Shown: positions 1-19,992 of the stretch, in pieces | How positions within the stretch are numbered: the first letter of the stretch is position 1 | Layout of the letters: every line of letters begins with the position of its first letter | NCBI GenBank assembly: GCA_964291215.2 | Contig: OZ219791.1 | Location: 736,001-800,000, forward strand | Direction of reading: 5' to 3' | Origin: Alphaproteobacteria bacterium | GTDB lineage: Bacteria; Pseudomonadota; Alphaproteobacteria; MPNO01; UBA830 | Length of the DNA stretch: 64,000 nt | Notes under the pieces: model-generated | Told to the model about the DNA's origin: nothing | What the model saw: the letters and a program-made list of their open reading frames with translations, nothing else | Database searches by the model: none | Made by a program: the position numbers and the translations under genes

Positions 1-253
1 ACGCCGTCCCGGGAAGCAGTCAATCCCTGCAGGGGTTCATACACCAATGCAAACGGCTGCTCATGCGTGCCCTTCGGCGACGCTCCCAAAAGGACTTCAC
101 CGGGGACATAGACACCCTTGCCGCCGCCCACTGGCCCAAAGCCAGCATCCGTGGCCAAACCAGCGCCTTGTCGTCAGGGGAGGAGCCGGATGCGAACAGC
201 GCATGTCCGGTTCTGTGCGGGGGGACCGGGGCAACCCGGTTCCCTACCGCAAT
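1..253 (+). mobile_element. Group II intron, 3' end (maturase C-terminus remnant plus domains V/VI)
   Basis: Domain V-like GAGCCGGATGCG...GTCCGGTTCTGTGCGGGGGG and a domain VI hairpin ending CCCTACCGCAAT; near-identical to 23160-23232. Confidence 0.85.
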
Positions 254-1573
254 GTGCGCCAGGCAAACTGGTGGAATGTGGCCGGGTGCAAGTCCCGAGA
301 GAGGCTAACCACCACTTTCTCCGTGAACCATGCGTCGTGAGGCGAAGCGTTGGGGAGCGGCAGGCCAGGCTATTGAGCCACGAGATGCTTTGAAACCGGA
401 GTGCCGAGGTCGTGGCCGAAGGCAACGAGCCGCGTTGGTGAGGGGGGCTCCGCGGGGTCCGAGAACCATGGCCGAAGCAGGGACCTGGGAGGTCTTGCCC
501 CTCTGTCGTGGAGGGGCCGCAGAGGAAATTCCGTAAGCCGATGATGAACGAGAAGTCAGATTCGGCCATAGTACCGCTGAAGGCGGCGAACAAGGGCTCT
601 CCGGAGCCTGCGGAGTTGCTGGAGGGAAGGGCAATGCGGTTGGCCCGCGCCGCGCGCAGAAGCGGGGGTCACAGGCGGCAGGTAGCGAAGAGGAACCCGG
701 AAGAGCGTCTTTACTCCACCACGTGATGTTCTGCGTTCCATTCCTTGAGGAAGGATGCGGCGGCGGGGCGTTGTGTGGCAAACGTACGGGGTGGAACTGC
801 CTGCACGCCCGTGTGCACAGGGGCGGGCGCCTCCAGGGTCTACATTCCCAAGGAGGGGCAACTTGCCTCGGACAAGATTCTTCAGCGGGCGGTGTGATTC
901 TGGTGCCGCGAAACGGAGTTCCTCGGTTCCGGCCGGGGCGCATCATGCGCCGTCACGGTGGAACGGCGGAAGGTCAACTGGATCGTTGACGCCCCTTCGA
1001 CAACCGCGACCATCTGGTTGCGATGCTCGGGAAACGGATCGGGGGGTCTGATCATCAAGTGACGCCGGCGTCATGGAAGGGACCGACTGGCAAGGGAACA
1101 CCGCAAGGGGCGGCGCCCTGCCTTGCGAACCTGCACTACGTGCGACTGGTTCCAGAACCACTGGCGCAAGCGGGACACGATCATTATGCGGACGACTTCG
1201 TGTGCGGCTTTCAGCATCTGGGCGGCGCTGGGACCTTGGGGAGAGACTGGCCCACTTGAACTGCACCCGGAAAATCATCGAGTTCGGTCGGTTTGCCAGA
1301 GCGAACCGCCGGAAGCGTGGGCAAAACGTTCGACTTCCTCGGCATGACGCACTTCTGCGAACAGACGAGGAAAGGCAGGTTCAGGGTCGGTCGCAAACGG
1401 GCACCCTGCGGCGGATCAAGGAGGCCTTGCGCAAGCGGTGGCACGACAACCGGCACGAAACGGCCAAGTGGTGAGTTATCAACGGCTGCTACTACGCCGT
1501 TCCAGGAAGCAGCCTGCAGAAGTTCATACACCAATGCAAACAGCTGCGTGCCCTTCGGCGACGCTCCCAAAAG

Positions 1574-3117
1574 GTAACTGCTCACCCCCTGGTTCCGGCT
1601 TGATGTCGGGGTAGAGCAACGAACGGGTTTTCGTGGAGATTTGACACTGTAGGCCGATTCGTTTAGTGGTGGTAATCGAGAACGACGGGGACCGCCAGTG
1701 AGCTACTTTGGATCGAAGGCGACGAGCGGGCTGTGCCAGCTGCTTCCGGGGCTCCAGCCTCCGCATGATCTGTATGTGGAAACGCACCTCGGAAGCGGCG
1801 CGCTGATGAAGCGCAAGGCGGAGTACCGGAAGATGCCGCCGGGTGAGCGCCAGGCAATGCTCGCAACGATCATGACCGTCGAGGCCGGGTGATGGCGACG
1901 GGCGGCGCGCGAGGAGTTCGAAGCGGCCAAGACCGCGGCGCTGCCGGCAAGGTGCCGAAAGAGGCCGTGATCCGCGTCTTCGTCATCCTGCTCGACATCC
2001 TCATCGTCGTCCTTCTGGAGAAGACTACACGCAAAACGAGCCGGAACTCCGGTCTGCCGCCGTCACAGACGGACAAGAGCGCGAGGCATGCCGGGAGCAA
2101 CGGCAAGGGCCCGAAGCCGAACCGGCAGATGGGCGACAACCTGCGCAAGACCATCGTCGAGGAGACGGTCGCGGCCTGCGACGCCTGCGGCGCCGACGGC
2201 CCCGTCGATCGGGAGCGCCGCACGACATCGTGTTCGAGGTCGTGCTGCGTCGACGCCGAGGAATGCCCGAAGTGCAAGGCCCGGTTCCCCGACAACATCC
2301 CGTGCAGTACGGCATCCAAGCCCTCGTCCCTGCTGGTCGCCCAGATGCTGTCCCTGCGCCGTCGCGCTCGTGCAGGCGATCTCCGGCATCAAGCTCTCCG
2401 AGGCCTCGGCCATGCTTTCACGATGCGCCATGGGAGGAGGCCGCCGTGGCGCACCTCCTGCAACGCCCGATGTCGACGATTTCGGATCAACGGCAAGTGG
2501 CTCTATGTCGTCGGGACGTGCAAGTTCCCGCACCGCAAGCGCGGGCAAGAGATCGGCCCGTGCTACAAGGGCGTCCTGGGCCTCGTACATGGCAGTGTAG
2601 CCACCAGTTGTGCGGCAGCCACCTGCTGCGCGAACTGACCTTTGTCGTCGAGGCTACCGCGCGACTGATGAAGAGCCTGCTCCGCGAGGTCTGCCACAAG
2701 ATCAACAAGAGCGCATCGAAGACCCTGAACGACGCCGGGCGCAAGCGCTACCGCACCATCAGGGCGCCAGGGAACTGCCCGACATTCCGACGAAAGGAAA
2801 ACGTGGAAGCAAGTCCGACGCGCACAACCTGCACGAACGTCTCGTGAAACACGAAAACCTGCGCTTCACAGACGACCCTGATGTCAGCTTCACCAACAAT
2901 GCCGGAGAACAGAAGATCAGGATGGCAAAGGTCAAGGTGTCCGGATGCTTCCGCTCCACGCAAAAGCATGGTGCCGGGGCTCAAGCTACCCCACCTCCAT
3001 GGCCGCACTCGGCTACAACCCACTCGTCGCCACCCAGATCGCCCTCGACGGAAAAGCCGCAGACATCATCAACGAGCACCACGACCAATCAGAACCCAAC
3101 TAGGGGTGAGTAGATAC
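1574..3117 (+). mobile_element. IS66-family element (degenerate), copy 1
   Basis: Terminal IRs GTAACTGCTCACCCC and GGGGTGAGTAGATAC; 8-bp TSD CCCAAAAG at 1566-1573 and 3118-3125; TnpC remnants (NSGLPPS, QLCGSHLLREL, FTNNAGEQKIR, KVSGCFR). Confidence 0.9.
1698..1892 (+). pseudogene. Internally deleted Dam/D12-like DNA adenine methyltransferase carried in IS66
   Basis: N-terminus YFGSK...PPHDLYVETHLGSGALM resembles the motif X/motif I region of D12-class MTases; no DPPY region. Confidence 0.55.
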
Positions 3118-3273
3118 CCCAAAAGGACTTCACCGGGGACACAGACAACCTCACCGCTGCCCACTGAGCCAGCATCCGTGGCCAAACCAGCGCCTTGTCG
3201 TCAGGGGAGGAGCGAACAGCGCACGTCCGGTTCTGTGCGGGGGGACCGGGGTAACCCGGTTCCCTACCGCGAT

Positions 3274-4545
3274 GGTTGTCTATGAAGCGCAGGTTTTCGT
3301 GTTTCACGAGACGTTCGTGCAGGTTGTGCGCGTCGGACTTGCGTCCACGTTTTCCTTTCGTCGGGATGTCGGGCAGTTCCCTGGCGCCCTGATGGTGCGG
3401 TAGCGCTTGTGCACGGCCCGGCGTCGTTCAGGGTCTTGGATGCGCTCTTGTTGATCTTGTGGCAGACTTCGCGGAGCAGGCTCTTCATCAGTCGCGCGGT
3501 AGCCTCGACGACAAAGGTCAGTTCGCGCAGCAGGTGGCTACCGCACAGCTGGTGGCTACACTGGCCCATGTACGAGGCCCAGGACGCCCTTGTAGCACGG
3601 GATGATGCCGATCTCTTGCCTCCCGGCCGCGCTTGCGGTGCGGGAACTTGCACGTCAGGGTCCCACGACATGGAGCCACTTGCTATTGATCCGAAATCGT
3701 CGACATCGGGCGTTGCAGGAGGTGCGCCACGGTGGCCTCCTCCCATGACGCATCGTGAAAGCATAGCCGAGGCCTCGGAGAGCTTGATGCCGGAGATCGC
3801 CTGCACGAGCGGCACGGCGCAGAGACAGCATCTGGGCGACCAGCAGGGACGAGGGCCTGGATGCCGTACTGCACGGGATGTTGTCGGGGAACCGGCCTTT
3901 GCACTTCGGGCATTCCTCGGCGTCGACGCGGCACGACCTCGAACACGATGTCGTGCGGCGCTCCCGATCGACGCCGTCGATGTCGGCGCCGCAGGCGTCG
4001 CAGGCCGCGACCGTCTCCTCGACGATGGTCTTGCGCAGGTTGTCGCCCATCTGCTGGTTCGGCTTCGGGCCGTTGCTCCCGGCACGCTCTTGTCCGTCTG
4101 TGACGGCGGCAGACCGGAGTTCCGGCTCGTGCGTGGTCTTCTCCAGAAGGACGACGATGAGGATGTCGAGCAGGATGACGAAGATGCGGATCACGGCCTC
4201 TTTCGGCACCTTGCCGGCAGCGCCGCGGTCTTGGCCGCTTCGAACTCCTCGCGCGCCGCCCGTCGCCATCACCCGGCCTCGACGGTCATGATCGTCGCGA
4301 GCATCGCCAGGCGCTCGCCCGGCGGCATCTTCCGGTACTCCGCCGCCCGGCCTTGCGCTTCATCAGCGCGCCGCCTCCGATGGCACAGCCCGCTCGTCGC
4401 CTTCGATCCAAAGTAGCTCACTGCCGGTCCCCGTCGTTCTCGATAACCACCACTAAACGAATCGGCCTGCAGTGTCAAATCTCCACGAAAACCCGTTCGT
4501 TGCTCTACCCCGACATCAAGCCGGAACCAAGGGGTGAGCAGTTAC
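3274..4545 (-). mobile_element. IS66-family element copy 2, cut by the group II intron at 3273/3274
   Basis: Reverse-complement homology to 1574-2877; end IR GGGGTGAGCAGTTAC at 4531-4545. Confidence 0.88.
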
Positions 4546-5163
4546 GAGATTTTTTTGCAATTTTCGCTGACGTTCTTGCACGGAAGTTGTCATGGTGCGG
4601 GGATGTCGGTTCGCAAGAACATCGCTTCCTGTCCGATTCACGTGGCAGCTCCGGAAGGGTCTGTCCGTGCATCCATGTTGCTTGGCAAGGTTTTTGCGGG
4701 TGTCCGCGGTGATGTTTTCTGTGGTTGTCCACAAGCGGTGTGGGGTTCCGCCTTGCCCTGCGAGCGAGGCGACATGAAGCTTGTGCTCCCGGCGGCGGGT
4801 TGCCGTCCATTGGTCACGTGACCGGTGAGCGCGGCTACCTTGCCGTCCAGCGTCCCCGGGCATGGTAACGTGACAGTCCGGGTTCCAGGTGTCCCGTCCA
4901 CAAGGCGGTTCGATCTCCTCGATGTCGGCCTCGACGATGATCTGCAGACATTCTCCCCAAGCCGTGTCGTAGAGGGAGACTGTTGAGACAGTCCCGATAG
5001 TGCTCCTGCACCGCACCGAGCCACCGCATCGCACCAGCGTTGCGCACGGGAATGACGGTCGCAGGGCTTTCGGTGGTGGGAGATGAGGGGCCTTGCGGCG
5101 TTCCCGATCGCGGCGCTGCTTCTCGGCAGGGGTGAGGGCCATGAGGGTGTCTCCTTCGCTCAC

Positions 5164-5947
5164 TCACCGTGCCGGTGCTTCAGGCGCCCAGCAACGCTGC
5201 TGTCGCAGCAAGGTGTTCGCCAGCACGTTGCGCATCACGGCGACGATCGCAACCTTGTGGGCCTTGCCGGCGGTCTTGAGGCGCTCGAACACCAGGTCCG
5301 CGTTGAAGCGTGCCGCCGAGGTTGCGGCCATGAACAGGAGATCACGTGGCCTTCGGCGCCCGCCACGGATGTGCCGAGCACCGTGGTGCTGGCCGCTGTC
5401 GTTGGCCATCGGCGCCACCTCGATCAAGGCTGCCGCCTGCCGACGCTGCCGAGTTCGGGCATCCAGCAAAGAAGGGCTGCGGCGGTCACCGGACCGAGGT
5501 CAGGATGGCGTAGCTCTGCTCGGGATCACCGGCGATCACCGCTTTGATCGCCGCGCCGGCGGTCATCGAGATCGGCCGCCGAGGCCCTTGTGACGGTCTC
5601 GCCATCCACCTCATCTGCCACGCGTCGACAAGCGCGGCACCAGGAGATCCTCCAGGCTCTTGAGGAAGGCGGAGCCACAGGCTCAAGATCGCCCAGCCGA
5701 TCTTGGCGTCGACGCGGTTGGCGCCTCGGCGAAGCGCCCGCAACGGGTTGACGAGAATAACCTCGAAGCCCCGGTCATGAAGACACTGGTGAACCTTGCG
5801 GTGATAGCGGCCTGTCGCCCACCACCCGGCTCACCCCGAGGCCGCGAAGCCACCTGCTCAGCGCCCGCCAGCTCGTGGCGTCGTTCGCAAAACAATGCGC
5901 CAGATGTCCAGACTGGCCTTGCTGACCCCTGCTACTACCTTGATCAT
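5164..5947 (-). pseudogene. IS110-family transposase remnant
   Basis: N-terminal VAGV-SKASLD (GxDVSK-like); C-terminal VAPMANDSGQHHGARHIRGGR...GKAHKVAIVAVMR; multiple frameshifts. Confidence 0.8.
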
Positions 5948-6236
5948 CGTCCCTCTTGCTCTTCGCCTTACGATGATACGGGTTCAAACCCAAGCATCCA
6001 TTCAGGACGCGAGGGACGTCAAGGGAAGTTGGCCGACCAAACTCGGACGCGGCTCTGTCAAGGTCGAAACGGCAACCTCCGCGGAGATCGTTTGATCCCC
6101 GCTCCCCTGTGCGTGTTCGTTCAGGGGAGCGGAATCTCTCTGTAACCATAGACCGGACGCTCTCCCACAGTCGGAGTTGTCCACATTTTCCCGCCCCCAA
6201 CCGCTGTGGATGATTGCATCATCAAAGGGACAAAAC

Positions 6237-8675
6237 CTAGTGTTATGTCAGCAATGATATGTCGTACATTTGGTGCTAGACTGTCCGTCCATTCGGGATG
6301 GAGGTCGGAGTATGAAACGCTACGTGGTGACCCTGGACTAGTAGTCTGACATTATTGTATTAATGGATATAGAGACTTCAGTTTCGTCCGGGTATCCTTC
6401 GTCGTGAAACGCCAGTCGACAGTGACATCGGCCGCATTGCGGCGCTCGACCCACGCCACGGTCTCCCGCAGCATGGTGTCGCGGTCGGGGATGCGTTGCC
6501 GAAGGCACTGCCGCGACAGCGCACCGATCTCGATTTCGGCCATGTTGAGCCAGCTTCCGTGCTTCGGCGTGTAGCGAAACTCGAACCGCTTTCGTACCCG
6601 CCTCGCCTCCTCGGGCTCGAAGGCTTCATACAGTGACTGTGCGTGTTCAGATTATCCATGACCAGCACGATCTTCCTGTCGGGGAAATGGTCGTTGGCAA
6701 GCTCCCGGATGAAGTGCGCCCAGTCCCGCGGCGGTCGGTGACTTTCACCGTGCGCCAGTTCTCGTTGGGCGCAAAGGCCATGAAGAGGTTGGCCGTACCG
6801 TTGCGCTCATATTCATAGTCGACCACCTCCGGCTGACCGGGGGATGCGGGTTTCCTGCTGCCGGCTGGTTTCGCACACCAGCACCTCGTCCCCGGCAAAC
6901 TCCCGCTGATAAATGTCAAGCACATCCTCCATCGCCGCCACGAACTGTGCGCTCCGGTGCGGTGGAATGCACCAGTACTGCTTCAGCCACGGCTTGATCT
7001 CTTTTTTTTAGCGTCTTCCTGACCGTCTCTTCTGAAATGCGCTCGACAATCTCCATCTCCACCAGACGGCCGGCAAGCAGCTTCAGCGTCCAGCGCGCAC
7101 AGCCCTCGGGCGGGGACGAACAGGCCAGGGCGATCAGCTTCGCCTCCATCGCCCCGTCCAGCCGTTTTGGCCGGCGGTTCACCTGCTCCTTGCGGCTGAG
7201 GGCGGCGTCCAGCCCCTCCAGGACGCAGCGCTTGCGCAAACGCTCAATCGTCGCCGTGCCGATGCCCAGCCCTTGCGCAATGTCGGCATCGACAAGCCGA
7301 GCGCCGTCGCGCCCCTCGTCGGCCAGCATCAGGACCTGTGCCCGGCGCCGACGCCAGGCGGCCCCGGTGCCGTCGACGATCGCCTTCAAATCCTGGCGCT
7401 CCTGCGCCGAAAGGGTCACGCGGTAGAGCTTCCTGCCCCGAGAGTTGGCCATATACGTTGCTCCTGTCATTGCGCCGCTCCCGTTGTCCGGACCTGCACA
7501 TGGGGCTGCGGCTGCCTGCCTGTTCGGTATCTTGCCCGTGTGGATATCGGCACTGTCCGGATTCCAACAGATGCCGACACAGGAATACTACCCACCAAAA
7601 ACCATCAATACAATGCCGGTGGACTACTAGGCGGAACGGAAAGAACTTTCGGAGATCACGACCAAGGGCTCGCATCTGTCGCAAAAGGTAATCAACGCCC
7701 TGCTCAACTGCGACGAGGGCGCGTTCAATGAATGCCAGATGACCGGGAAGGTCATTGCCAAGATTCTGCGCATCAGCATGCGCAAAGTAGACCGGGTGAA
7801 AAAGCGTTTCGTTGAAGAGGGGTTGGGGGCGGCATTGGGTGGCCGGCAAGGACGCCGTCCTACCTACATGCGAAAAGCCGACGGCACCTTCGAGGCGCGC
7901 TTGGTGGCCCTGAGTTGTGGTGAACCGCCCGAGGGTCACGCGCAATGGTCGTTGCGGCTGCTGGCCGACCGCGTTGTCGAGCTTGGTTACACCGTGTCAC
8001 ACGAGACGGTGCGGCGTGTTCTAAAAAAAACTGCCTCAAGCCATGGCAGCGGGTGGGTGATTCCTCCTCAAGGGAACGCCGACTTCGCCGCAGCGAAGGT
8101 GCTCGATGTCTATCGCCGCCCCGCCGCCTTCCCCGTGGTCTGCATGGACGAAACGCCCCGACCGGCGAGACACGGCAACCGATCGCCATGGCGCCGGGAC
8201 GGCCAGCGCGTAACGACTACGAGTATCGACGTTGCGGCACCTGCAACGTCTTCACGGAACCCCTGGCCGGCAAGCGCATGACCAAGGTAACCGAGCGCAA
8301 GATCGACTGGGCGCAGTTCCTGGCCGACATCGCCGAGCGCTACCAGGATGCTACCACCATCACCCTGGTGATGGACAATCTCAACACTCCCCGGCGCCCT
8401 CTACGAGGCCTACCCGCCGGACGAGGCCTTGTGGGACCGCTTCGAGTTCGTCTACACCCCCAAGCACGGCAGTTGGCTGAACGTGGTCGAACTCAACGTC
8501 ATGATCCGCCAGTGCCTGAACCGCCGCATCGACTTCATCGAGGTGCTACGCCGGGAAGTCGCCGCCTGGCAGGCGACCGCATCCAGGCCAAGGTGGATTG
8601 GCAGTTCACCACCGACGATGCCCGCGTGAAACTCAAACGCCTTTATCCAACATTTGACGAATGACAAGACACTAG
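6237..8675 (+). mobile_element. IS630-family element A (degenerate), disrupted by element B
   Basis: CTAG-bounded IRs CTAGTGTTATGTCA and TGACAAGACACTAG; MKRYVVTL start; A8 slippery tract near 8023; MDET, VMDNLNT and YTPKHGSWLN motifs. Confidence 0.85.
6338..7630 (-). mobile_element. IS630-family element B nested in element A
   Basis: IRs CTAGTAGTC and GACTACTAG; HTH ORF 6916-7470; A8 frameshift tract near 7002-7009; DDE fragments 6352-6925. Confidence 0.85.
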
Positions 8676-8721
8676 TCATATAAGGGTCTCTTGGCACCTC
8701 ATGGTCTGGCCCGGAAGCAGA

Positions 8722-9204
8722 TCAGCTTTGCGTAAGTCGGGTCAATCCGCTCACTATGGTGGACAATAGTAACTTTTGAACGAAAGGTGTCCGAAGTAGA
8801 TATCCAATCACTGCACCGGAGATTACACTCAAACCAATCCCTATCGCCACAGGAGTCAATGGATCCACAAACGATAGGCTATCACTTATAGCGTAGAACC
8901 AAGCAATCGGCATCGCTAAACCGATGAGCACATGCACAGCTCGCACGGTTCGCTTAACAAGAAGAGCTAGTCTGCGAATCCTTTTTTCTGTTTCAGCTAA
9001 GTGCGAGAACAAAACGGTTTGTCCTAATGCGGGCCGCGCCACGAAAACGGTTATGTCGCCGTCCAATTGTATCGTGGACTGAATTGCGATGGAGCCCGGC
9101 GCCTCCGCGGATTCAATGACCAAGCCTCCGCGGCAAAGCAGAGCAGCCAAATCCGCGAAGACCGAACACTCTTTTCGCAGATTCGATTCTATGTCTGTTG
9201 TCAC
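8722..9204 (-). CDS. Hypothetical membrane protein (paralogue 3; two C-terminal TM helices)
   Basis: Intact 160-aa ORF; hydrophobic segments at about aa 90-110 and 118-138; QSTIQLDGDI motif. Confidence 0.75.
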   Translation of the reverse strand: MTTDIESNLRKECSVFADLAALLCRGGLVIESAEAPGSIAIQSTIQLDGDITVFVARPALGQTVLFSHLAETEKRIRRLALLVKRTVRAVHVLIGLAMPIAWFYAISDSLSFVDPLTPVAIGIGLSVISGAVIGYLLRTPFVQKLLLSTIVSGLTRLTQS

Positions 9205-9222
9205 GAGCGTCCTAGTGCACTA

Positions 9223-10002
9223 TTACCGCCGAGCGATCAGCCTCGCGAACGCGCCGGTCATTGATACAAGAGTCTCGGCAATCAGTTTCCACATGCGTGT
9301 TCCTGACACGATGCCTTCACGATGGAAATCGAGAAGGACAGCCATTTCTTTGGGCTCCAATCCACTTTGGATCCGATTGATCACGTCTCCCGACAAGGAC
9401 ACGGTGCTCTGCATAACTACTTCCTCCACTCCAATGTCCCAGATTTTGCGAAGGAGGGACATTTCATCAGGGTGAAGGTTTGGTTGGGGATGGCGCCCGA
9501 GAGTCGTCTCTCGATCAAGCAGTTCTCGACGGTTGCAACCTAGAAAATTGTCATTTGAGTTGCGACGCGAACGAGGTCGCTTTTTCAAATTCCTCAGCAA
9601 CCCACGAACTTGATCAGAATTGCGCCTGATCCTCTCGACGATAACTCGATCACGATCTTTGAGATCCAGATAATCTTCTAGGATACGGTAGGCAGCGCGG
9701 CGGAGACGCTGAAACGTATAATCATCGCATCTAAGGGTGCCCCGCTCCACCCTTTCTTGCTGCCAGTGTTGTACATGTACAATGTCTCCCTCTGGTGGAT
9801 TCTGTTCAACGAACGGTGTAGCAAGCGGGATTTTCAAGTCGACCTGCAGCTTGTCGGTGTAGGTCGCAGCAATATCGAGAATCGCATGTCCAGGCGGTGG
9901 CATCTTACGCGCCGTCATGCTGTGCTTAACGATTGTGTTGATCTCGAGCGTCGTTAGATCTCGGGCGGTCAGTTTCAAGCTCTCCCGGACACTCGTCATC
10001 AC
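9223..10002 (-). CDS. Hypothetical protein (paralogue 2)
   Basis: 259-aa ORF with GAGG RBS; DLTTLEINTIV and QSTVSLSGDV...FH motifs. Confidence 0.8.
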   Translation of the reverse strand: MMTSVRESLKLTARDLTTLEINTIVKHSMTARKMPPPGHAILDIAATYTDKLQVDLKIPLATPFVEQNPPEGDIVHVQHWQQERVERGTLRCDDYTFQRLRRAAYRILEDYLDLKDRDRVIVERIRRNSDQVRGLLRNLKKRPRSRRNSNDNFLGCNRRELLDRETTLGRHPQPNLHPDEMSLLRKIWDIGVEEVVMQSTVSLSGDVINRIQSGLEPKEMAVLLDFHREGIVSGTRMWKLIAETLVSMTGAFARLIARR

Positions 10003-10048
10003 ACTCGTTTCCCTCGCCTAGCCAACCCCGCCGGGTAGCCAACCGAAG

Positions 10049-10375
10049 CTACCCGATATTGCGCAACTGTTTTACAAGGTCGACGATGACTTCGACGTTG
10101 CCCTTAACGATTGCCTGGCCCTTCTCAACCTGGCTCGCGTGAAATCCCCGGATGGGATGCAGTTCCTCGTCCCTCAGGAAGGCCTCGTTGAACGAGTTGC
10201 TGATATCGCCTTGGACCAAGTCGATCTTCGTCTTGATCTCCTTTGGCTCGTTGCCGATTACCGTAGTGGTGATCTCGAGTGTCATGAGATTGACGGCGGC
10301 TTGCTTCAAGTGATCGAGGATTTCCTGCCATCCTCCACCAGCCGCGGTGCCGCCTACCTCTCCGTCGTTTGCCAT
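10049..10375 (-). CDS. Hypothetical protein (paralogue 1)
   Basis: 108-aa ORF with GAGG RBS; NLMTLEITTTV and KTKIDLVQGDI...FH motifs. Confidence 0.8.
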   Translation of the reverse strand: MANDGEVGGTAAGGGWQEILDHLKQAAVNLMTLEITTTVIGNEPKEIKTKIDLVQGDISNSFNEAFLRDEELHPIRGFHASQVEKGQAIVKGNVEVIVDLVKQLRNIG

Positions 10376-10578
10376 TCTTCTGCCCTCTTGCTTCGAACAC
10401 GATTATATTGAAACCTAGCGTGATGGTGCCGCTACTACAAGATGTAGCGTGCGTTTCCAGAGTCCACAAAGGATATGGTGGCAGCGACCGGCAGATCAAG
10501 AGGCCAAACGGCTAGATGCCCAGCATGGTCTGGGCCAGCCGACGGCAATCGACGAGAGGGAGAGGGGACGAGCGTTGA

Positions 10579-12330
10579 TCAAAGGTCAAGGGCCTCGACG
10601 GCATTGGCGCCGAACCAACTGTTCACCGTCTGCAGGGCACCAGGGGGCAGTTCTTGAGTGAAGAGGATAGCTAGTCGTTTCTTCGGCCTTGAGCAGGTGA
10701 CGTAGAAGAGGTTACGATTGCGCTCGAAGGCGTCGTGTCTGTCTGGGGGAATGGAGAGGGGATCGGCCGCCAGTTCGAGCATTTGGCCGAAGTTGTATCG
10801 GTTCCAGCCTCTGCCGACGACCACCAGGACATTGTCAAATTCCGCACCCTTGACACCGTGTTTGGTCTCGAACGGGGAGTGCCCCGAGAGATAGCGGCAG
10901 AGTGCAACGATCTCGCGGTATGGCACGGCGCGGAGTTTCTCGAGCTCTTTCAGCGGGCGAGGCATGACCTCTTCAGCGTCCGGATCGAACTCCCGCAATT
11001 CACGCTCGCGCCGCTCCACAGCATCGGGAACGCGGGGGCGGCGCACTGCAAGCAGGTGCTCCAACACATCGCCGACCGTAGCGCGATCTCGCAACTCGAT
11101 CGTTCTGTCCATGGCTTCGGTCCACTTGTGCTTGTCGTCATGAGCACGGATCGCCGGAACGCTGGAGCCGAGCGCTCGAAACATTTCGCCGTATTTCTGT
11201 GAGAGGTAGGCATTACAGGCAGGTTCCAGAGCGTCGGCGAAGTAGGCGATGTGCGGATGCTCCTTCTTGGTGAAGGTATCGTTGAAGGCGAATACCGCGG
11301 GAATGCTGGGATAGCCTTGCCGGCCTGCGAGGACGCTGTGGGTGAGCATCAGGATTTTGGTGGTCTCGGGAGAGAGGTCCCAACCCTCCAAGTCAAGGCG
11401 GTAGAGGACGGTCTGAAGCGCGTTCTCCGCGGTCTCGGCAGGGAGATCGCCGAGCCAATAGCCGCCGCCGCCGGGGCGGCGTTCGCCAGGCCAAGCGTTG
11501 GTGTGAAAGATGCGGACCTCGCCCTCCGCGTCGGGATCGACGACGGACTGGGGTAGTTCGGGCCGCATGCGGTTGAGACAGTCGACGATGGTCGGAACGG
11601 AGCGAAAGTTCGCCTCCTTGCCGATCACGGTGAGGCCCGGATGGTCGATTTTTCCGCAGCCGTTGCCGTAGATCTTCTGCCAGTGGTCACCGAAGAACCC
11701 GAATTGTGGCGAGTTTGCTCGGCCAAGAAAGTGGTGCTTGATGGAGTCAATCCAGCCGTGGTCCGTGTCCTGGTATTCGTCGATCAGGATGATCGGATAC
11801 TTGTCGGCCAGGATGCTCCTGAATTTGGAATTGCCCATGAGCGCGATGGTCAGGATGAGGACATCGTCGTGATGGATGGAGATGCGGGCGTCGTTGATGC
11901 TTCTGTGCCCGAGCTCGTATTCAACTCGGCGTTCCCCGACGCCGCCGACTTCGGCGAGCTTCTCAGGCCAGTGTTCGAGGTCAGGCAGGCGTTCGCGGAG
12001 CTGTCTCTGGAACCCGACGATGAGTGACCAGCAGAAGGCGTGGATGGTGTTGCAATGGATGATCGGGCTGCGGTCGGTGCGGGCCTCGATTTCGTTCTTG
12101 GCAACATTCGTGAAGGTGATGCAGGCGATCCGTTGGTGGCGTTGCGGCAAGGCGTGACGGTAGCGGTCGATAAGGAATTGCAGCGCCCTCACGAGGGTGT
12201 AGGTTTTGCCGGCGCCGGCACCAGCTTCGACGAGGAAGCTCTCCCCGTGTTCGAGGCAGTGATGGACTTGGTCGAGGGCTCTCTGGCTGGCCTCCTCGGC
12301 CGGGTTCATGGGTTGGACGGGTTCAACCAT
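10579..12330 (-). CDS. UvrD-like SF1 helicase (GajB-like)
   Basis: EAGAGAGKT, IDEYQD, GDxxQKIY, NFRS, TKHGVKGAEFD and LFYVTCSR motifs; overlaps the upstream OLD gene. Confidence 0.92.
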   Translation of the reverse strand: MVEPVQPMNPAEEASQRALDQVHHCLEHGESFLVEAGAGAGKTYTLVRALQFLIDRYRHALPQRHQRIACITFTNVAKNEIEARTDRSPIIHCNTIHAFCWSLIVGFQRQLRERLPDLEHWPEKLAEVGGVGERRVEYELGHRSINDARISIHHDDVLILTIALMGNSKFRSILADKYPIILIDEYQDTDHGWIDSIKHHFLGRANSPQFGFFGDHWQKIYGNGCGKIDHPGLTVIGKEANFRSVPTIVDCLNRMRPELPQSVVDPDAEGEVRIFHTNAWPGERRPGGGGYWLGDLPAETAENALQTVLYRLDLEGWDLSPETTKILMLTHSVLAGRQGYPSIPAVFAFNDTFTKKEHPHIAYFADALEPACNAYLSQKYGEMFRALGSSVPAIRAHDDKHKWTEAMDRTIELRDRATVGDVLEHLLAVRRPRVPDAVERRERELREFDPDAEEVMPRPLKELEKLRAVPYREIVALCRYLSGHSPFETKHGVKGAEFDNVLVVVGRGWNRYNFGQMLELAADPLSIPPDRHDAFERNRNLFYVTCSRPKKRLAILFTQELPPGALQTVNSWFGANAVEALDL

Positions 12331-14374
12331 CGTGGGCCACCGCGGCGTCAGGGGCCTCGAGAATGGGGGCAGCTTGGTCGATTACCGCCCCGTCGTCCGC
12401 AATGTCGCCACGCGCGAGCCATCTCAATCCGTTGACGATGTAGCCCGGTGGGGACCAGTCGGTGTTGTCGATCGCGTGTTTGAGCGCGAACTCGGACTTC
12501 TTGATGGTGTTGAGCTGGTGCCACGCACACTGGGCCTGATCGTCCGGCTTGTCACCTTCGATCCCGAACATGGCTGGATTTGCCAGCATGAACGCGTCCT
12601 CAAAAGTGCGGCCGCATGGACCGCCCTCGGCCTCGGGCCGCTGGTAGGCGATGCGCCGGAGGTTCTGGACCTTCGAGGCGTCGTCTTTGGCGAGGAGGGC
12701 TGCGGGTGAACAGTCGCCGCCACCGAACCAGGATTTCAGACAAGCGTCGCTGGTCGCGGTCCTTTGGTGCACCGGGCAGGTCTTGCGATCAGCGGTGACG
12801 GAGTCGAGGTCGGTGATGATGAGGGTCCGCAGTTCCAGAAAGTCGAGAAGAGCGAAGAAGATGTGCGCGTAGGCACCGCCCACTTCCATCGTCGTCACGT
12901 ATTGGCTGGAGAGTTTGGGTTCAGCAGGCTCGGCAGCCTCCAGCTTGTTAATGATTACGGGCAGCAGCAGGCGCTCGCTCGCGCCTTCGATCAGCACGGC
13001 TTTGTCGGCAAAGAAGAGATCGCAGCGCGTCAGGGTCAGATACTGGTGGAGAAATCGCCTGTGCTCTTCGGGCGTATCGTGCAGCCCTTGGCGGAGATCC
13101 TTGGTTCTGGTGTGGCGCACCCCGTCGACAGACGCAGGGATGAAATAGCGGATTGCCTGGAACCCGGCCGCGTTTGCGACGTGGGAAGAATGGGTCGAAA
13201 CGATGAACTGGACCGGCCACGGCAGGGGAGCACCGTCCTGCGTGCTGAGCTGGTGGGCAATCTTTGAGACCTGGCGGATGAACACTTCCTGCATCTGCGG
13301 ATGCAGGTGGGCCTCGGGCTCCTCAATGAAGACGAGGTGGACTCCAGGCGCGGCCGGTTCAGCGCGGAAAGAGCGATAGAAACTGACTAGCTGGAGCAGG
13401 ATGAAGATAAGGTTGCGTATGCCGAGGCCGGTGTACGACTCCGGTAACTGGATGCCGTGATGGCCGGCGTACCTGACCTTGGTGTGGCGTGAGAGCAAGC
13501 GCTCGATGTCGAGTGTCGTTTCGGTTTCGAGCTCGGAGCCATCGAGACCGGGATAGCCGAAGGAGTGCAATGTCGGCATGAGCTTCTGCAGTTCTTCTCT
13601 GAAACCGCCTTGAATCGTGCTTTGGATATCGCGAACGGCATCCTGGAGTGCTTGGGCGATCAGCTGCTCTTGCTCGTCGGCGGTGGGCGACTGCGCGGCG
13701 GTAAAGAGGCCCTCGAGAATCTTGGCGAGGACATCGGTGTCTCTTGAGGTGTCATCGTCGAGGCCACGCTGGGCATTCACGAAACCTGTTTTCAAGAGCG
13801 AGCGGAGCGCGGTTACGGTCATCTGCTTTCGGTTGGCGTCGTCGTTGGGGTCTTCGGCCCATATGCTGGCGGTAAATAGGTCGGGTACGCGCTGGCGGAG
13901 TTCTTGGAAGAAGGCGATGCGATCGCGGTCGGTGAGATTGCCGGCCGGTTGATCGGCGAACAGCGAATCGATGGCGCCATCTCGCAGCTCGTAGCGCGCC
14001 ACGACCATGGTCTCGTTGCAGTCGGGGTCGAGATCGACGATGAAGTCGCTGAGCGCGCCGAGATCAGGTTGGTTGGGGTCGTAGCGGAACAGGAGTCGTA
14101 GCTCGATGCTCGGAATGAGGGTGCGGACCTCATCGTCAGGGCGCCCGGCACTCTTGGCCGTAAGCGCGTCGCAGAAGCGGTCATAGGAGGTGTTGGAGAA
14201 GTCCTCGATCTGGAACCTGGGATTCTGGTCGGCGAGGAACCGGCGAATTGCCTCGGACAGGGATGTCTTGCCGCTGTTGTTGCGCCCAACGATGAGGGTC
14301 GTCGGAGTTTCCAGCACTAGGTCGGCATCTGCTAAGAGGCGAAAGTTCCTGACTGTGACTTTGTGAAGGTGCAT
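12323..14374 (-). CDS. OLD-family ATP-dependent nuclease (ABC ATPase plus TOPRIM; GajA-like)
   Basis: GRNNSGKT, IEEPEAHLHPQMQ, STHSSH; TOPRIM LIEGASE and ITDLD. Confidence 0.92.
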   Translation of the reverse strand: MHLHKVTVRNFRLLADADLVLETPTTLIVGRNNSGKTSLSEAIRRFLADQNPRFQIEDFSNTSYDRFCDALTAKSAGRPDDEVRTLIPSIELRLLFRYDPNQPDLGALSDFIVDLDPDCNETMVVARYELRDGAIDSLFADQPAGNLTDRDRIAFFQELRQRVPDLFTASIWAEDPNDDANRKQMTVTALRSLLKTGFVNAQRGLDDDTSRDTDVLAKILEGLFTAAQSPTADEQEQLIAQALQDAVRDIQSTIQGGFREELQKLMPTLHSFGYPGLDGSELETETTLDIERLLSRHTKVRYAGHHGIQLPESYTGLGIRNLIFILLQLVSFYRSFRAEPAAPGVHLVFIEEPEAHLHPQMQEVFIRQVSKIAHQLSTQDGAPLPWPVQFIVSTHSSHVANAAGFQAIRYFIPASVDGVRHTRTKDLRQGLHDTPEEHRRFLHQYLTLTRCDLFFADKAVLIEGASERLLLPVIINKLEAAEPAEPKLSSQYVTTMEVGGAYAHIFFALLDFLELRTLIITDLDSVTADRKTCPVHQRTATSDACLKSWFGGGDCSPAALLAKDDASKVQNLRRIAYQRPEAEGGPCGRTFEDAFMLANPAMFGIEGDKPDDQAQCAWHQLNTIKKSEFALKHAIDNTDWSPPGYIVNGLRWLARGDIADDGAVIDQAAPILEAPDAAVAHDG

Positions 14375-14489: not shown

Positions 14490-15989
14490 TCAGGTGCATA
14501 GCGCAGATTTCGCGCGGCCGAACCTCATCCGGAGTTGCCGGTAGCGATACCTCATGCGAGTAGCCCAGCTGTCTTGCGGTTCATCGGTGAACGGGTAAGT
14601 GGGCCTTCCGTCTTTGCCGAGTCCTAGTCGTAGGTGCGAGAACTCGCAGCTGGCCACACAGCGGTCCGGGTGCTCAAACGGCTCAGTCTCGGCTTCGACG
14701 AAGCGGTGTTCGAATGACCATCGGCCGGCGGTCGAGGTCCCGTCGTGCCACCAGTCTTCGCCGATCGCGTAGCGCACGAGCATGCGCATCTCCTCAGCCG
14801 CCACCAGGTTGCAGAACGCGATGGTGTTCTGGCCCGGTTCCGGGCCGTCGGGGGCATCGTCGTTGATGTAGCGTCCGTGACGCCGGATGCCCATCCGTTC
14901 ATCTCGAGCATCGCCGCTGGTGTACTGGCCGCGGCACCGCAGGCATTGCATGTCGGGGCCGACCAGGTGGACGCGCCATTTGGCAGAGAGCAGACGGTCT
15001 CGTGATTCCACGAGGACCCCGCCGTCGATCAGGGGTAGGCAGTTTGCGTAGGCAACGTGATTGAGAACTTCGCGCGCCTCGGCATTGTCGACGCAGCACA
15101 TGATGAGGTCCGCGTCGGCTGCGAGGCGGTACGCACGCTCGGTGCGGATCGACAACGGAATCGCGCGAACGATCGGGCGGCGCGCGGTGGCAATTCTGCG
15201 AAGGTGGGCCGCGGCCAGAACCGCCTTGGGCAGTCCGAGGCAGTGCCGGTCAGCGTAGATCAGGCGATCGAGGTTCCTGTCCTCGACGAGGTCGGGGTCG
15301 ATCACGGTGATCTGCTCGAACCCGGTGCGTGCGAGGGATTCGAGGACGATCGAACCGACGCTACCCGCTCCGACGACGCAGACGTGGGTGCGAGCCAGGC
15401 GCGCCTGCGCGTCGATGCCCCAGCTGTCCACGGTGCGCACCAGGCTTGGACGGCGGGCGTAGGGCGGATGGGCGCCCGGAGCCAAGTCCGCGCCCGTGCG
15501 GCGCGGCCCGATCCGTCGAACGTCGCTGCAGTGCGCAGGCGCGATGCGGCCAGGCCCGGATTCCTGCCAGAACCGGGCGCTCCAGACGCCGTCGGAGCCC
15601 ATGGTGAGGCCGAGCAGCGGCAAGTCCGTCTCTCGGACGAAGGGCGCGACGATGTTGCGCTCGGTGTCGTCATCCATGCCGCTCAGGGCCTGCCAGCCGG
15701 GACCAGGATGGCTGTGAAGGACGGCAACGCCTGCCTTCGCCTTGAGCGCGCGATCGAGGACGCGGTTGAGATATCCGCCGTGCACGGTGACGTTGCCGTG
15801 CAGATCCCGGTCGCCGTCTTCCGGCAGAACGATGTCGGCGAGGATCCCCGTATAGCGGTTGAGCCCATCGCCGCGGCGCCAGAGCGCAAGACAAGCCTCC
15901 TCCTGCAGCCCACCGCGGCGCAGCCCGCTCAGGAGGTGATCCGCGAGCTGGCGGTGGAGGGCTTCACGCACTATGACGCGATGATTCAA
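14490..15989 (-). CDS. JAB/MPN peptidase-ThiF/E1 adenylyltransferase fusion
   Basis: N-terminal EEAC...HSHP-x7-SGMD JAMM motif; C-terminal VGAGSVGS, DPDLVEDRNLDR, CVDN and CLRC. Confidence 0.9.
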   Translation of the reverse strand: MNHRVIVREALHRQLADHLLSGLRRGGLQEEACLALWRRGDGLNRYTGILADIVLPEDGDRDLHGNVTVHGGYLNRVLDRALKAKAGVAVLHSHPGPGWQALSGMDDDTERNIVAPFVRETDLPLLGLTMGSDGVWSARFWQESGPGRIAPAHCSDVRRIGPRRTGADLAPGAHPPYARRPSLVRTVDSWGIDAQARLARTHVCVVGAGSVGSIVLESLARTGFEQITVIDPDLVEDRNLDRLIYADRHCLGLPKAVLAAAHLRRIATARRPIVRAIPLSIRTERAYRLAADADLIMCCVDNAEAREVLNHVAYANCLPLIDGGVLVESRDRLLSAKWRVHLVGPDMQCLRCRGQYTSGDARDERMGIRRHGRYINDDAPDGPEPGQNTIAFCNLVAAEEMRMLVRYAIGEDWWHDGTSTAGRWSFEHRFVEAETEPFEHPDRCVASCEFSHLRLGLGKDGRPTYPFTDEPQDSWATRMRYRYRQLRMRFGRAKSALCT

Positions 15990-16411
15990 CGCGCACTCCA
16001 GATTCTGCGGATGTGCTTGTTCAGGTAGGCTTCCATGTTCTTGCCGTTCGGGGTGTCGATCTGATCCCAGAAGTCGCTCGGCGGAGCGCTAATTGCCATC
16101 CAGTCGAGACCGTCATCGCACTGGAAGATCTGGATGGCGCCCGGGGAGTGAGACCCCTTTACCAGCTCCTCTAGGACGGGGTCGGGGGGCGAGAGGTAAA
16201 GCCAATGGGGTGCAACCTCGGGCCACTCGCCCTCGTTCTGGTGCATCGCGAGTGCCAGGGTCACGGTCTCCCCCGCGCGGCTGCCGTCCTCGATCCGGTA
16301 AGGGAAGCGGACGCCGTCCGCGCCGCCTTGCTGCTCGGGCGCCGCGAACGGGCTCGTGTCATAGCGCAGCGCGGCGAGTTCGGCAGCAATGCGCTTGGAA
16401 TTGTTGCTCAT
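15986..16411 (-). CDS. Prokaryotic E2/UBC-like protein (141 aa)
   Basis: ATGA and TTGA overlaps with both neighbours; WPEVAPHW resembles the UBC YPxxPP motif; WMAIS...FWD; position between Ubl and E1. Confidence 0.65.
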   Translation of the reverse strand: MSNNSKRIAAELAALRYDTSPFAAPEQQGGADGVRFPYRIEDGSRAGETVTLALAMHQNEGEWPEVAPHWLYLSPPDPVLEELVKGSHSPGAIQIFQCDDGLDWMAISAPPSDFWDQIDTPNGKNMEAYLNKHIRRIWSAR

Positions 16412-16650
16412 GCGAATGGCGCACCCTTCTCCGGAGCGGCCCGAAATACGTTGTACTTGTCGAGGTCGACCACTTGTCCAGAGACGAAGGTGAGGTCGGA
16501 GTCCGGTACTCTCAGCACGTACCCAGTCTTGTCCGGGTCCTCGCCGATGGCCTTGCCGGCGAAGGTGATCTGCAACAGAACGGCAGCATCGACGGCCTGC
16601 TGTTCGGCGAAGAAGGTCTCGCCGTTCACCTTGAATTCGAACTTGTCCAT
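16408..16650 (-). CDS. Ubiquitin-like (beta-grasp) protein
   Basis: 80 aa with GAGG RBS; FEFKVNG...YVLR...GQVVDL...F pattern of prokaryotic multi-ubiquitin-type domains; heads an E2/E1/JAB operon. Confidence 0.75.
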   Translation of the reverse strand: MDKFEFKVNGETFFAEQQAVDAAVLLQITFAGKAIGEDPDKTGYVLRVPDSDLTFVSGQVVDLDKYNVFRAAPEKGAPFA

Positions 16651-16740
16651 CTCGTTGTCCTCTGAGCTGAGCGTTGTCCGGCACCGTTGCGCGGTCCACG
16701 CTCAGGGCGATAAGGTCCGGCAGTAGGCACCAACTTGGAG

Positions 16741-16774
16741 TTTACATTACCACGCTATATGTATATCTTGTCAA
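16741..16774. promoter_or_regulatory. Overlapping divergent sigma70-like promoters
   Basis: Plus strand TTTACA-N17-TATCTT; minus strand TTGACA followed by TGGTAATGT; AT-rich patch between divergent genes. Confidence 0.55.
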
Positions 16775-16802
16775 CCACGGGTTAACGAGGGAGGAGGAAC
16801 GC

Positions 16803-17882
16803 ATGTTCGGACAACGACTCCGACTCGCCCGGAAACGGGCAGGTCTATCGATGCGGGAGCTCGCGGACGCGATGAGCCTGAAGGTGACCGCTCAGGCGAT
16901 CAGCAAGTACGAGGCGGGCAAGATGCTGCCCTCCTCGGCCGTGCTTGTCGGTCTCGGGAAGGCTCTCGACGTCTCGCTGGACTTTCTGATGAGCGCGCAA
17001 GTCGAGGCGCTCGAGGCGGTCGAGTTCCGCAAGCATTCCCGCGCGTCGGCCCGCGATCGCGCAAGGGCCGAAGCAGAGGTGATGGACAGCCTAGAGCGCT
17101 ACCTAGCGATCGAACACATCCTCGACATCGAGTCCAGCGTCGAATGGGTGGAGGGGCGCCGCTACGACAGCGTCGCGAGCGAATCCCAGATCGACGAGCG
17201 GGCCGACGAACTGCGCAGGGTCTGGGATCTCGGCCTCGACCCGATCCCCAGCTTGTGCGAGTTGCTCGAAGACAAGGGAATCAAGGTGGTGGAAGCCGAT
17301 CTCCCGGAGAGCATCAACGGGCTCTCGTGTCACGTTCTCCGGGGCGGCGAGATCGTCGCCGAGGCCGTCGTCGTGTCCAGCCGGATCAATGTGGAGCGCA
17401 AGCGCTTCACGCTGGCCCACGAGCTCGCGCACAGGATCATCCGCTCCACCGGCAATCCGGCGATCGACCTCGAACGGGCGATGAACCGCTTCGCCGGTGC
17501 GTTTCTGGTTCCCGGCCAGAGTCTTCGGGACGAAGTCGGCGCTGATCGCCACAGGATCACCCATTACGAGATCGTCTGCCTGAAACAAATCTACGGCGTG
17601 TCGGCCGCGGCCCTGCTGATGCGTCTCGGACAGGTGGGCGTACTGTCCCAAGGCTCTGTACAACATGCCTTCGCGACCTTCGCCCGGTCCTGGCGCAAGT
17701 CGGAGCCGGATCCGATCCGCCCCGACCATGGGTTCGCGGCCTTCGAGAAGCCTCGTCGCTTCAAGCGGCTTGTCTCGCGCGCGGTGGGCGAGGAACTGAT
17801 CTCACCCGTCCGTGCGGCCGCGCTTCTCAACCAGTCGCTCGAATCGGTCGAGCGGCAGATCAGCGGTCCTGCCATCCAGTGA
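16803..17882 (+). CDS. XRE HTH-ImmA/IrrE (peptidase M78) fusion regulator
   Basis: GGAGGAGG RBS; RLRLARKRAGLS...AISKYEAGK HTH; RFTLAHELAH HExxH motif. Confidence 0.92.
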   Translation: MFGQRLRLARKRAGLSMRELADAMSLKVTAQAISKYEAGKMLPSSAVLVGLGKALDVSLDFLMSAQVEALEAVEFRKHSRASARDRARAEAEVMDSLERYLAIEHILDIESSVEWVEGRRYDSVASESQIDERADELRRVWDLGLDPIPSLCELLEDKGIKVVEADLPESINGLSCHVLRGGEIVAEAVVVSSRINVERKRFTLAHELAHRIIRSTGNPAIDLERAMNRFAGAFLVPGQSLRDEVGADRHRITHYEIVCLKQIYGVSAAALLMRLGQVGVLSQGSVQHAFATFARSWRKSEPDPIRPDHGFAAFEKPRRFKRLVSRAVGEELISPVRAAALLNQSLESVERQISGPAIQ

Positions 17883-18412
17883 CCTGCGTCATCGTCAACG
17901 ACGCTTCGTGCTTGATCGACCTCCGTAAGGGAGGCCTGCTGGGCGTCGTTTGAGACCTGCCCTATCGGTTGGTGATCCCGTTGCCCGTGCGGGCTTTGGA
18001 AGTGCTCGACCTTTCGGAGGCCGAATGGCAGGCGCTCGACGAGGCCGGCATGATCACGCACGACCTGACTCTGGAGGAGGTCGGTCAGGCGTTCGCGGTG
18101 AAGAGGCGTCATGCGGGACTCTCCGCCAACGACTGCTTCTGTCTGGTCACGGCACGGATCTATCCGGGCATCCTGCTCACGGGCGACGCCCTACTGCGCA
18201 AGGTTGCCGCAGCGAATGGACTGCGGGTGCACGGCGTGCTCTGGGTGGTCGACGAGCTTGAGGCTGCAGCCGTTTGCAGCAGATCGCTTCTGAGTCGGGC
18301 GCTCAAGGCATGGCAGTCGGACGAGTCGGTGTTCCTTCCCCCGCACGAAATCAGCACGCGGCTTGAGTACCTGGCGAAAGCCGGGTCTCGGAGAAGCAGC
18401 GAAAATCGCTGA
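17879..18412 (+). pseudogene. PIN-domain nuclease/toxin with in-frame TGA at codon 25
   Basis: GTG start overlaps the upstream stop; IVNDASCLIDL, LSAND and LLTGDALLR motifs; TGA at 17951-17953 with the frame continuing. Confidence 0.75.
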
Positions 18413-18969: not shown

Positions 18970-19992
18970 ATGTATGGATGGGAGATGAGGATGTTGTTGA
19001 AGCACTATCTGGACCAAGGCGTTTCGAAGGCGGAGCTGTCGCGCCGGTTCGGGGTGAACCGGCGCACGATCCATTACTGGATCGAGACGGGCCAACTGGA
19101 CCGTGATCTGTCGGTCGGCCCGCGAGATTATGCGCCGCGTCACCCGGTGGCTCACAAGCTGGATCCCTACAAGGGGATCATCGACGCGCGCCTTGAGGAG
19201 TTCCCGAAGCTCTCGGCGAAGCGTCTGTTCGACGAGGTTCGCGCGGCGGGCTACCCGGGCGGCTATCGCCGCGTGCTGGACTATGTGCGTGCGACGCGGC
19301 CGCGCGAGCCGGTCGAGGCGGTGGTGCGGTTCGAGACGCCGGCGGGTCGCCAGGGCCAGGTGGACTTCGGGACGTTCCGGCCTCCCTGGGGCCGGCGTCA
19401 TGCCTTGGTGGTGGTGCTGGGCTACTCCCGGCTTCTGTGGCTGCGGTTCTTCCCCCGGCAGACGATGGCAGTGCTGATGGAGGGACTGGAGAGCGCCTTC
19501 GGTCGGTTCGGCGGGGTTCCGGAGGAGCTGCTGTTCGACCAGATGCGCGCGGTGGTGCTGTCCGACGACCGCACCGGCGCCGGCGGCCTGGTGCTCAACG
19601 CGGAGTTCCTGCGCTTCGCCACGCACTGGGGGTTCATGCCCCGCTCGTGCCGCCCCTATCGGGCCCGGACGAAGGGCAAGGTGGAGCGTCCGATCCGCTA
19701 CATCCGCGAGAGCTTCTTCTACGGACGCAGCTTCGCGAACGACGACGATCTCAACCAACAGGCCGCGGGCTGGCTGGAGGGTACGGCCAACGTTCGCCGG
19801 CACGCCACGACCGGGGAACGCCCCGTCGACCGCTTCGAGCGCGACGAACGGGCGGCGCTTCGCCCCCTGGCCATCTCTCCCTACCGGCGTCTCGGCCTCC
19901 GCCAGGCTCCGGAGCCCGCACGACGGCGCTTTCCGACAAGTGTGGAGGTCGAACGGCGCCCGCTCAGCGTCTATGCGGAGGCGCTGCAATGA
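18970..19992 (+). CDS. istA: IS21 transposase
   Basis: RFETPAGRQGQVDFG, FDQM and TKGKVER motifs. Confidence 0.95.
   Translation: MYGWEMRMLLKHYLDQGVSKAELSRRFGVNRRTIHYWIETGQLDRDLSVGPRDYAPRHPVAHKLDPYKGIIDARLEEFPKLSAKRLFDEVRAAGYPGGYRRVLDYVRATRPREPVEAVVRFETPAGRQGQVDFGTFRPPWGRRHALVVVLGYSRLLWLRFFPRQTMAVLMEGLESAFGRFGGVPEELLFDQMRAVVLSDDRTGAGGLVLNAEFLRFATHWGFMPRSCRPYRARTKGKVERPIRYIRESFFYGRSFANDDDLNQQAAGWLEGTANVRRHATTGERPVDRFERDERAALRPLAISPYRRLGLRQAPEPARRRFPTSVEVERRPLSVYAEALQ

Follow-up and report, generated by a model that had tools for sequence, protein, structure and literature searches.

A rare but widespread cassette of three paralogous genes, one coding for a predicted membrane protein, lies next to a Gabija locus in an alphaproteobacterium

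Genes of the locus

The window, by which we mean the complete stretch of 64,000 nucleotides that was analysed, carries on its minus strand three co-oriented open reading frames, which we call genes A (10049-10375), B (9223-10002) and C (8722-9204). Their positions and the spacing of 46 bp between A and B and of 18 bp between B and C agree with an earlier note on this DNA. Gene A encodes a soluble protein of 108 amino acids that belongs to an acidic family and consists of a minimal module. Gene B, with a GTG start followed by an ATG codon, encodes 258-259 amino acids, in which the module is combined with a helical insert of ca. 170 residues, and gene C encodes 160 amino acids comprising a partial module, two predicted membrane helices and a basic tail. 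The GC content of the cassette (52.4%) is lower than that of the Gabija genes (60.8%) and of the window (64.3%); the earlier note had described the three genes as less GC-rich than the core genes. All sequence motifs quoted earlier for the three proteins were recovered, and the insert of B spans about 172 amino acids between LTTLEINTIV and QSTVS. The cassette genes show dN/dS values of 0.09-0.33 against two close homologous loci, and A, B and C are real genes under purifying selection. Two independent contigs also carry the cassette. One, from another sequencing run, is identical over positions 8632-10562; the other comes from a second study, matches positions 8683-11019 at about 98% identity and bridges into gajB. 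The cassette is present as a single copy in its own genome, and no promoter- or terminator-like sites were found around it.

Upstream of A lie, on the same strand, gajB (10579-12330; PADLOC GajB, E 2.2e-257), which ends 203 bp before A, and gajA (12323-14374; PADLOC GajA, E 1.6e-280). The stretch upstream of gajA (14490-18412) contains a ThiF/E1 gene whose N-terminal part is unmatched and has an HSHP motif that appears JAB-like by eye, two small open reading frames that have no match (15986-16396 and 16408-16650) and that we take, from their position, to be E2- and Ubl-like, as well as a divergent HTH-M78 regulator and a PIN-like gene with a weak PIN match. The flanks of the island (1-8664 and 18970-25000), read by eye, are densely filled with often frameshifted fragments of mobile elements, presumably insertion sequences and group II intron-like reverse transcriptases. 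A transposase-like fragment ends 58 bp past the stop codon of C; the related contig has other DNA there.

A module shared by three paralogues

The proposal that the three proteins are paralogues was borne out by profile-profile comparison with hhalign, which gave 95.7% for A-B, 96.8% for B-C and 82.3% for A-C. Since single-sequence pairwise BLAST among A, B and C was non-significant (E 0.5, 0.046 and 6.4), the relationship is established only with deep alignments. The matches centre on a strand, a G-D turn, another strand and a helix with a near-invariant histidine. At E<1e-3 the profile of A picked up 51 of 153 B proteins, whereas reversed or shuffled decoys derived from the 420 A, B and C sequences gave no match. 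Homologues of B came from metagenomes (the best 80 of 189 confirmed) and from species genomes, where the best 80 of 106 yielded 79 loci. The alignment sets were defined by gene position (138 rows for A, 149 for B and 124 for C) and replaced an iterative C-seeded profile that drifted into A and B; locus L058, a mis-assigned B copy, had entered another C profile, whose C-versus-B counts were dropped, and was excluded from alignment A5.

The motif that had been given as common to the three proteins is exact in A (T-K-I-D-L-V-Q-G-D-I), whereas B and C have the variant S-T-[VI]-x-L-x-G-D-[VI]. Likewise, C contains only the later part of the domain; the first-strand motif LxxLE[IV]xT is missing, with a GG motif instead. 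AlphaFold2 models of A (pLDDT 84) and B (pLDDT 93.5) are alike. The A protein is modelled as a helix, three consecutive strands and a long helix, with the G-D turn in the three-strand part and the invariant His79 in the long helix, and the B model has the same order of elements with a helical bundle inserted after strand 1. According to the profiles, the part of the module present in C consists of strands 2-3 and the helix with the histidine. Profiles and the A and B fold models thus agree with the idea of a single domain occurring in minimal (A), insert-expanded (B) and membrane-tethered (C) form. The most conserved member is B (E20, K33, R124, R185, K186, W188, G191, Q198, G205, D206, R210, H227 and W238), and its invariant charged and aromatic residues suggest a site for a ligand or partner.

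In the C protein of the window, membrane helices are predicted at about residues 89-107 and 116-137. Across the C family, hydropathy peaks at positions 89 and 128, and residues 141-150 have a mean charge of +3.2. At least one hydrophobic segment was found in 116 of the 124 members and at least two in 68, by a permissive cut-off, which 27 of 138 A and 34 of 149 B proteins pass as well. The A and B proteins are net acidic (median net charge of A -5), and signal-peptide-like N-termini occur in 1 of 138 A and 0 of 149 B proteins. From this scarcity of signal-like N-termini and from the basic flanks around the two hydrophobic segments of C, we infer that the module faces the cytoplasm. A complex prediction with B, C and residues 12-108 of A, in which A was scored, gave a median of 0.48 as compared to 0.38 for a control with B replaced, which is no evidence either way.

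Distribution, gene order and variants

The triplet proved to be conserved: where both flanks were long enough, 104 of 117 homologous loci have the order A-B-C, and after grouping at 70% B identity it is present in 80 of 88 groups. Although the surveyed loci had also served to train the profiles, the initial detection of A came from an independent profile. The A family comprises 940 clusters at 50% identity, and the cassette occurs in Proteobacteria, Myxococcota, Planctomycetota, Acidobacteriota, Bacteroidota and Actinomycetota. It was found in none of 60 relatives and none of 400 genomes of its own phylum, and in two other phyla in 4 of 400 and 3 of 250 genomes besides the centres. No homologues were present on the viral records searched, phages included, the only plasmid matches are Azospirillum chromids, and no RNA source was among the matches listed. 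The cassette is likely self-contained and horizontally moved.

The distances among A and B proteins co-vary (Mantel rho 0.40, 0 of 300 permutations); co-variation is weak for B and C (rho 0.11, 3 of 300) and absent for A and C (rho 0.03, 91 of 300). A natural B-C fusion exists in four loci of Actinoplanes/Paractinoplanes (L140, 8331-9545; L137, 6991-8322; L147, 8216-9535; L148, 8246-9544), where it is followed by A and a second B. Six Bacteroidota loci (L153, L155 and L173-L176) have two more paralogues, giving up to five per locus. One of these, the fourth paralogue, is small and related to A (hhalign 96%); the other is a large protein of 512-549 amino acids that ends in a C-like module (hhalign 82%) and includes a weak peptidoglycan-binding-like segment (E 0.0025). 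The extended loci have the order small paralogue, large protein, A, B and divergent C, often with a CHAP or peptidoglycan-binding amidase. A lone member of the fourth-paralogue subfamily, with 13 close homologues, lies on the opposite strand near the cassette of L149 (342-671). An extra C match in L101 (E 7e-5), distant and on the opposite strand, is probably a false match due to hydrophobicity.

In Azospirillum the cassette is located on a chromid directly behind parA-parB, on the same strand and at 133 bp (L161, 9433-13483; NZ_CP012916.1). The genes are annotated as hypothetical proteins in Azospirillum and correspond to AMK58_RS24010/24015/24020 in Azospirillum brasilense Sp7. Its retention at a single site behind parAB suggests that its role in the cell is a stable one.

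Relation to known families

As the earlier note had supposed, no named family was recognised; A, B and C have no match in Pfam, NCBIfam or PADLOC. The PADLOC library of 2023 gave no family for the three proteins at E<=0.1, and hence no homology to GajA (OLD-type ATPase/TOPRIM) or GajB (UvrD). Searching PHROG with 14 family proteins, including six C proteins and one B-C fusion, produced zero matches. The Pfam YbaB profile matched neither A, B or C at E<=1 nor any of 138 A members at E<=0.01. A search of PDB sequences with the A, B and D profiles found nothing below E 0.24, Foldseek found no match at E<=0.001 in the PDB or BFVD, the best VIA scores were Z 6.2-6.5, and the ESM Atlas returned nothing above 0.82. 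The recurring best alpha/beta fold match for both the A and the B model is YbaB/EbfC, a weak resemblance (VIA Z 5.8-6.5, rmsd 6-7 Å, 8-14% identity; Foldseek E 0.09-0.17). Structural matches to prefoldin, Mediator and WXG100 proteins reflect coiled-coil similarity only. A literature search that also used the Azospirillum identifiers, and that covered mostly papers outside subscription and their main texts, retrieved no paper on the cassette. The cassette is real and widespread but rare, and no prior description of it was found.

Genomic neighbourhood

The neighbour survey covered up to three genes per side with one locus per group, in total 430 genes from 91 loci. Gene calls were heuristic and cut to 420 amino acids; all were scanned with PADLOC, whereas the Pfam scan took in the first 150 neighbours plus 145 selected proteins, most of them from the remainder. 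PADLOC gave 23 matches, of which seven genes in six of the 91 loci are plausible defence genes. The other 16 are generic (sigma factors, ABC ATPases, MoeB, DnaQ, ankyrin/TPR proteins, sigma-54 activators and others, judged partly with Pfam and partly by eye). With Pfam, L135 and, just beyond the three genes, L002 are added, so that a plausible defence neighbour is found in 6-8 of 91 loci, raw counts that do not bear out a general proximity to defence genes. The neighbour clusters of 109 independent groups contain no conserved fourth gene; one recurring cluster (L094, L111, L128 and L132) consists of ABC transporters.

The earlier note had also suggested that the Gabija or ubiquitin-like modules next to the triplet might have it as their effector or target. 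A GajA homologue is near only one of the 91 loci, 5 kb away, and no gene of the island in the window recurs in the neighbour clusters of the 109 groups; the link is therefore unsupported, and the place of the cassette beside an anti-phage system in the window looks incidental. A second suggestion, that of a new anti-phage system, is weakly disfavoured for the family as a whole by the 6-8 loci mentioned above, but may hold for the clade of the window locus. This clade includes the two closest relatives with context, L001, which adjoins TIR/ThsB genes, and L002, with a type III restriction-modification pair. In L135 (2907-8868), a gene for a 985-amino-acid ThiF-JAB-patatin fusion and a GmrSD-domain gene are found upstream of a cassette bordering an integrase.

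The neighbours are mainly metabolic genes, with wall-related enzymes as a recurring minority. A profile built from 20 independent peptidoglycan-binding domains detected five such domains in 389 kb at up to 2.5 kb from the cassette, as compared to two in 704 kb at 2.5-10 kb. Against a genome-wide rate of 30 in 36 Mb this is an approximately 15-fold enrichment within 2.5 kb, in five loci that represent about four independent events, because L153 and L155 share a locus type. About 10 of the 91 loci have a wall hydrolase or peptidoglycan-binding neighbour. In seven of these (L014, L044, L052, L071, L145, L153 and L155) the gene is co-oriented and adjacent, as it is in two of four further Bacteroidota loci. 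None of nine neighbouring wall hydrolase or peptidoglycan-binding genes has a signal-like N-terminus, the start of the one in L044 being uncertain. Loci with wall hydrolases are scattered over the B tree; there is no hydrolase next to the cassette in the window.

Other contexts occur in single or few loci. Directly downstream of C, L091 (11401-20723) harbors a contractile injection system (Pvc16, a sheath-like gene and a gp19 tube gene), and its close relative L093 lacks this system. The cassettes of L157, L130 and L013 are near PspA or SPFH genes. In L138 (1565-9157) and L133 (1534-9156) the cassette stands at the end of a cluster of about seven unnamed paralogues. These have in common an N-terminal helix motif with no Pfam match, some also have OmpA or PASTA domains, and they may be DUF2589-like.

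Discussion

The constant occurrence of the paralogues as a trio, the natural B-C fusion and the predicted membrane hairpin together suggest that A, B and C co-assemble at the membrane, which we consider probable. The hetero-oligomeric membrane assembly proposed in the earlier note is in the same way plausible in view of the fixed triplet and the fusion. For the function of such an assembly, we tentatively favour a holin-like gate formed by C and controlled by A and B, which may serve lysis or release and possibly abortive infection in the lineage of the window. This reading was chosen because controlled membrane permeabilisation is the one output that would explain both the signal-less hydrolases and the defence contexts of the own clade.

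In the proposed mechanism, the three products would come together at the cytoplasmic membrane, on its inner side, with C as a membrane hairpin that has both ends in the cytoplasm. Mutual binding could occur via the shared module, in the way YbaB-like folds pair through sheets and helices. With its invariant charged and aromatic residues, B might act as sensor or latch, and A as spacer or inhibitor. Upon a trigger, C would oligomerise and permeabilise the membrane. Where signal-less wall hydrolases are encoded alongside, the open gate would free them, leading to lysis or to release resembling that by type 10 systems; for a stand-alone cassette, opening would cause depolarisation or cell death, which in defence islands such as that of the window may amount to abortive infection.

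The closest functional parallel is with cassettes of a holin and a hydrolase or type 10 secretion systems (PMC9527704): C is small with about two helices and a basic tail, and a subset of loci adjoins signal-less wall hydrolases and once a contractile-injection cluster. As a small membrane protein C would fit the 1-4 helices seen in such systems, by prediction with a simple hydropathy scale. Unlike holins, C has no holin sequence match, about 90% of the loci are without a hydrolase, no viral copy was found, and C possesses a soluble module that is common to two obligatory soluble paralogues. We know of no holin that shares a soluble module with two such paralogues. In its action the cassette may resemble a holin-hydrolase or type 10 system, but by sequence it does not belong to them.

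The holin-like gate is favoured by the A-B-C order and the lack of a fourth gene, the B-C fusion, the co-variation of A and B, the hydrophobic segments and basic tail of C, the enrichment of peptidoglycan-binding domains, the co-oriented signal-less hydrolases, the peptidoglycan-binding-like paralogue of Bacteroidota and the injection genes of L091. Counting against it are the many loci without a hydrolase (about 10 of 91 have one), the lack of a match of C to any holin family, the small number of independent enrichment events, the weak B-C and absent A-C co-variation, the permissive hydropathy cut-off, the stable position in Azospirillum and the weak resemblance to YbaB.

Several other explanations have to be weighed. 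Two-helix membrane effectors of anti-phage systems, such as SLATT and Cap15-type proteins, are common in abortive infection, and the cassette could be a stand-alone system of this kind, with B as sensor of infection, A as regulator and C as the killing component. The hairpin protein with soluble partners as putative controllers, located here in a defence island, resembles such effectors, and the cassette is patchy, low in GC and accessory (0 of 60 relatives, 0 of 400 genomes of the phylum); it adjoins Gabija genes in the window, TIR/ThsB genes in L001 and type III restriction-modification genes in L002, and in L135 it has GmrSD or ThiF-JAB-patatin genes on one side and an integrase on the other. 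We nevertheless regard this as rather unlikely, as only seven of the 430 neighbours, from six loci (eight with Pfam), are plausible defence genes, the three close defence-adjacent loci are one clade, and A, B and C lack a match in PADLOC. From the known two-helix effectors the cassette also differs in that it has no match in Pfam or NCBIfam, includes no nucleotide-signal enzyme and has a defence context in less than 10% of loci. A separate explanation, in which the neighbouring Gabija or ubiquitin-like modules have the cassette as their effector, target or accessory, could draw on the shared strand, the distance of 203 bp to gajB without a terminator-like site being found, and the presence of the same junction in the approximately 98% identical relative. 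It is very improbable given that no island gene recurs, a single locus of 91 has GajA nearby, different genes adjoin the cassette in the two closest homologous loci, and the GC contents differ by 8 points.

A structural role, in which the proteins form a polymer or scaffold at the membrane (a coat, a filament or an envelope-stress lattice) without a pore, A being the main subunit, B the adaptor and C the anchor, would agree with the modelled long-helix/beta-hairpin shape of A, which may fit polymerisation, and with the up to five paralogues in Bacteroidota, one with a peptidoglycan-binding-like part, the few loci near PspA or SPFH genes and the stable retention in Azospirillum. The patchy, single-copy distribution does not agree with it, and the invariant charged residues of B suggest a site for a ligand or partner rather than a contact within a lattice; we think such a role fairly unlikely as well. 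The fold comparison leads to yet another possibility, of chaperones or export adaptors that pass signal-less proteins to a membrane anchor, or of membrane-tethered DNA-binding proteins. In a review (PMC6109436), YbaB is described as DNA-binding, and EspL, EspH and EspD as YbaB-like type VII secretion factors; the resemblance of the cassette to these ESX-1 factors is in topology only. The predicted order helix-strand-strand-strand-helix and the paired terminal helices are like those of YbaB/EbfC (PDB 1pug, 3f42, 1ybx and 1j8b), which recurs as best alpha/beta match for both models, and the Azospirillum cassette is located behind parAB. However, the fold scores are within noise (best Z 6.5; Foldseek E 0.09 or worse), Pfam YbaB is absent from 138 A members, A and B are net acidic, and in contrast to YbaB/EbfC there is no profile match, the conserved motif (G-D turn and His) is the cassette's own, and the genes form an operon of hetero-paralogues with a membrane member. 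We consider this explanation distinctly improbable.

Returning to the gate controlled by A and B, a further-reaching and rather doubtful proposal is that the cassette represents a new class of programmable membrane-opening machine, in which one ancient module would have given rise to three paralogues, B acting as the sensor that frees the pore protein C, and which bacteria would have redeployed both as a non-phage holin for the release of hydrolases or injection particles and as an abortive-infection effector in defence islands. The cassette is spread over six phyla with about 940 A clusters, yet has no family name, structure or function. Azospirillum brasilense Sp7 is a cultured model that carries it. 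If it is indeed a membrane gate under the control of its paralogues, the cassette would offer programmed lysis or release by a non-phage path, and it would also add a new type of defence effector.
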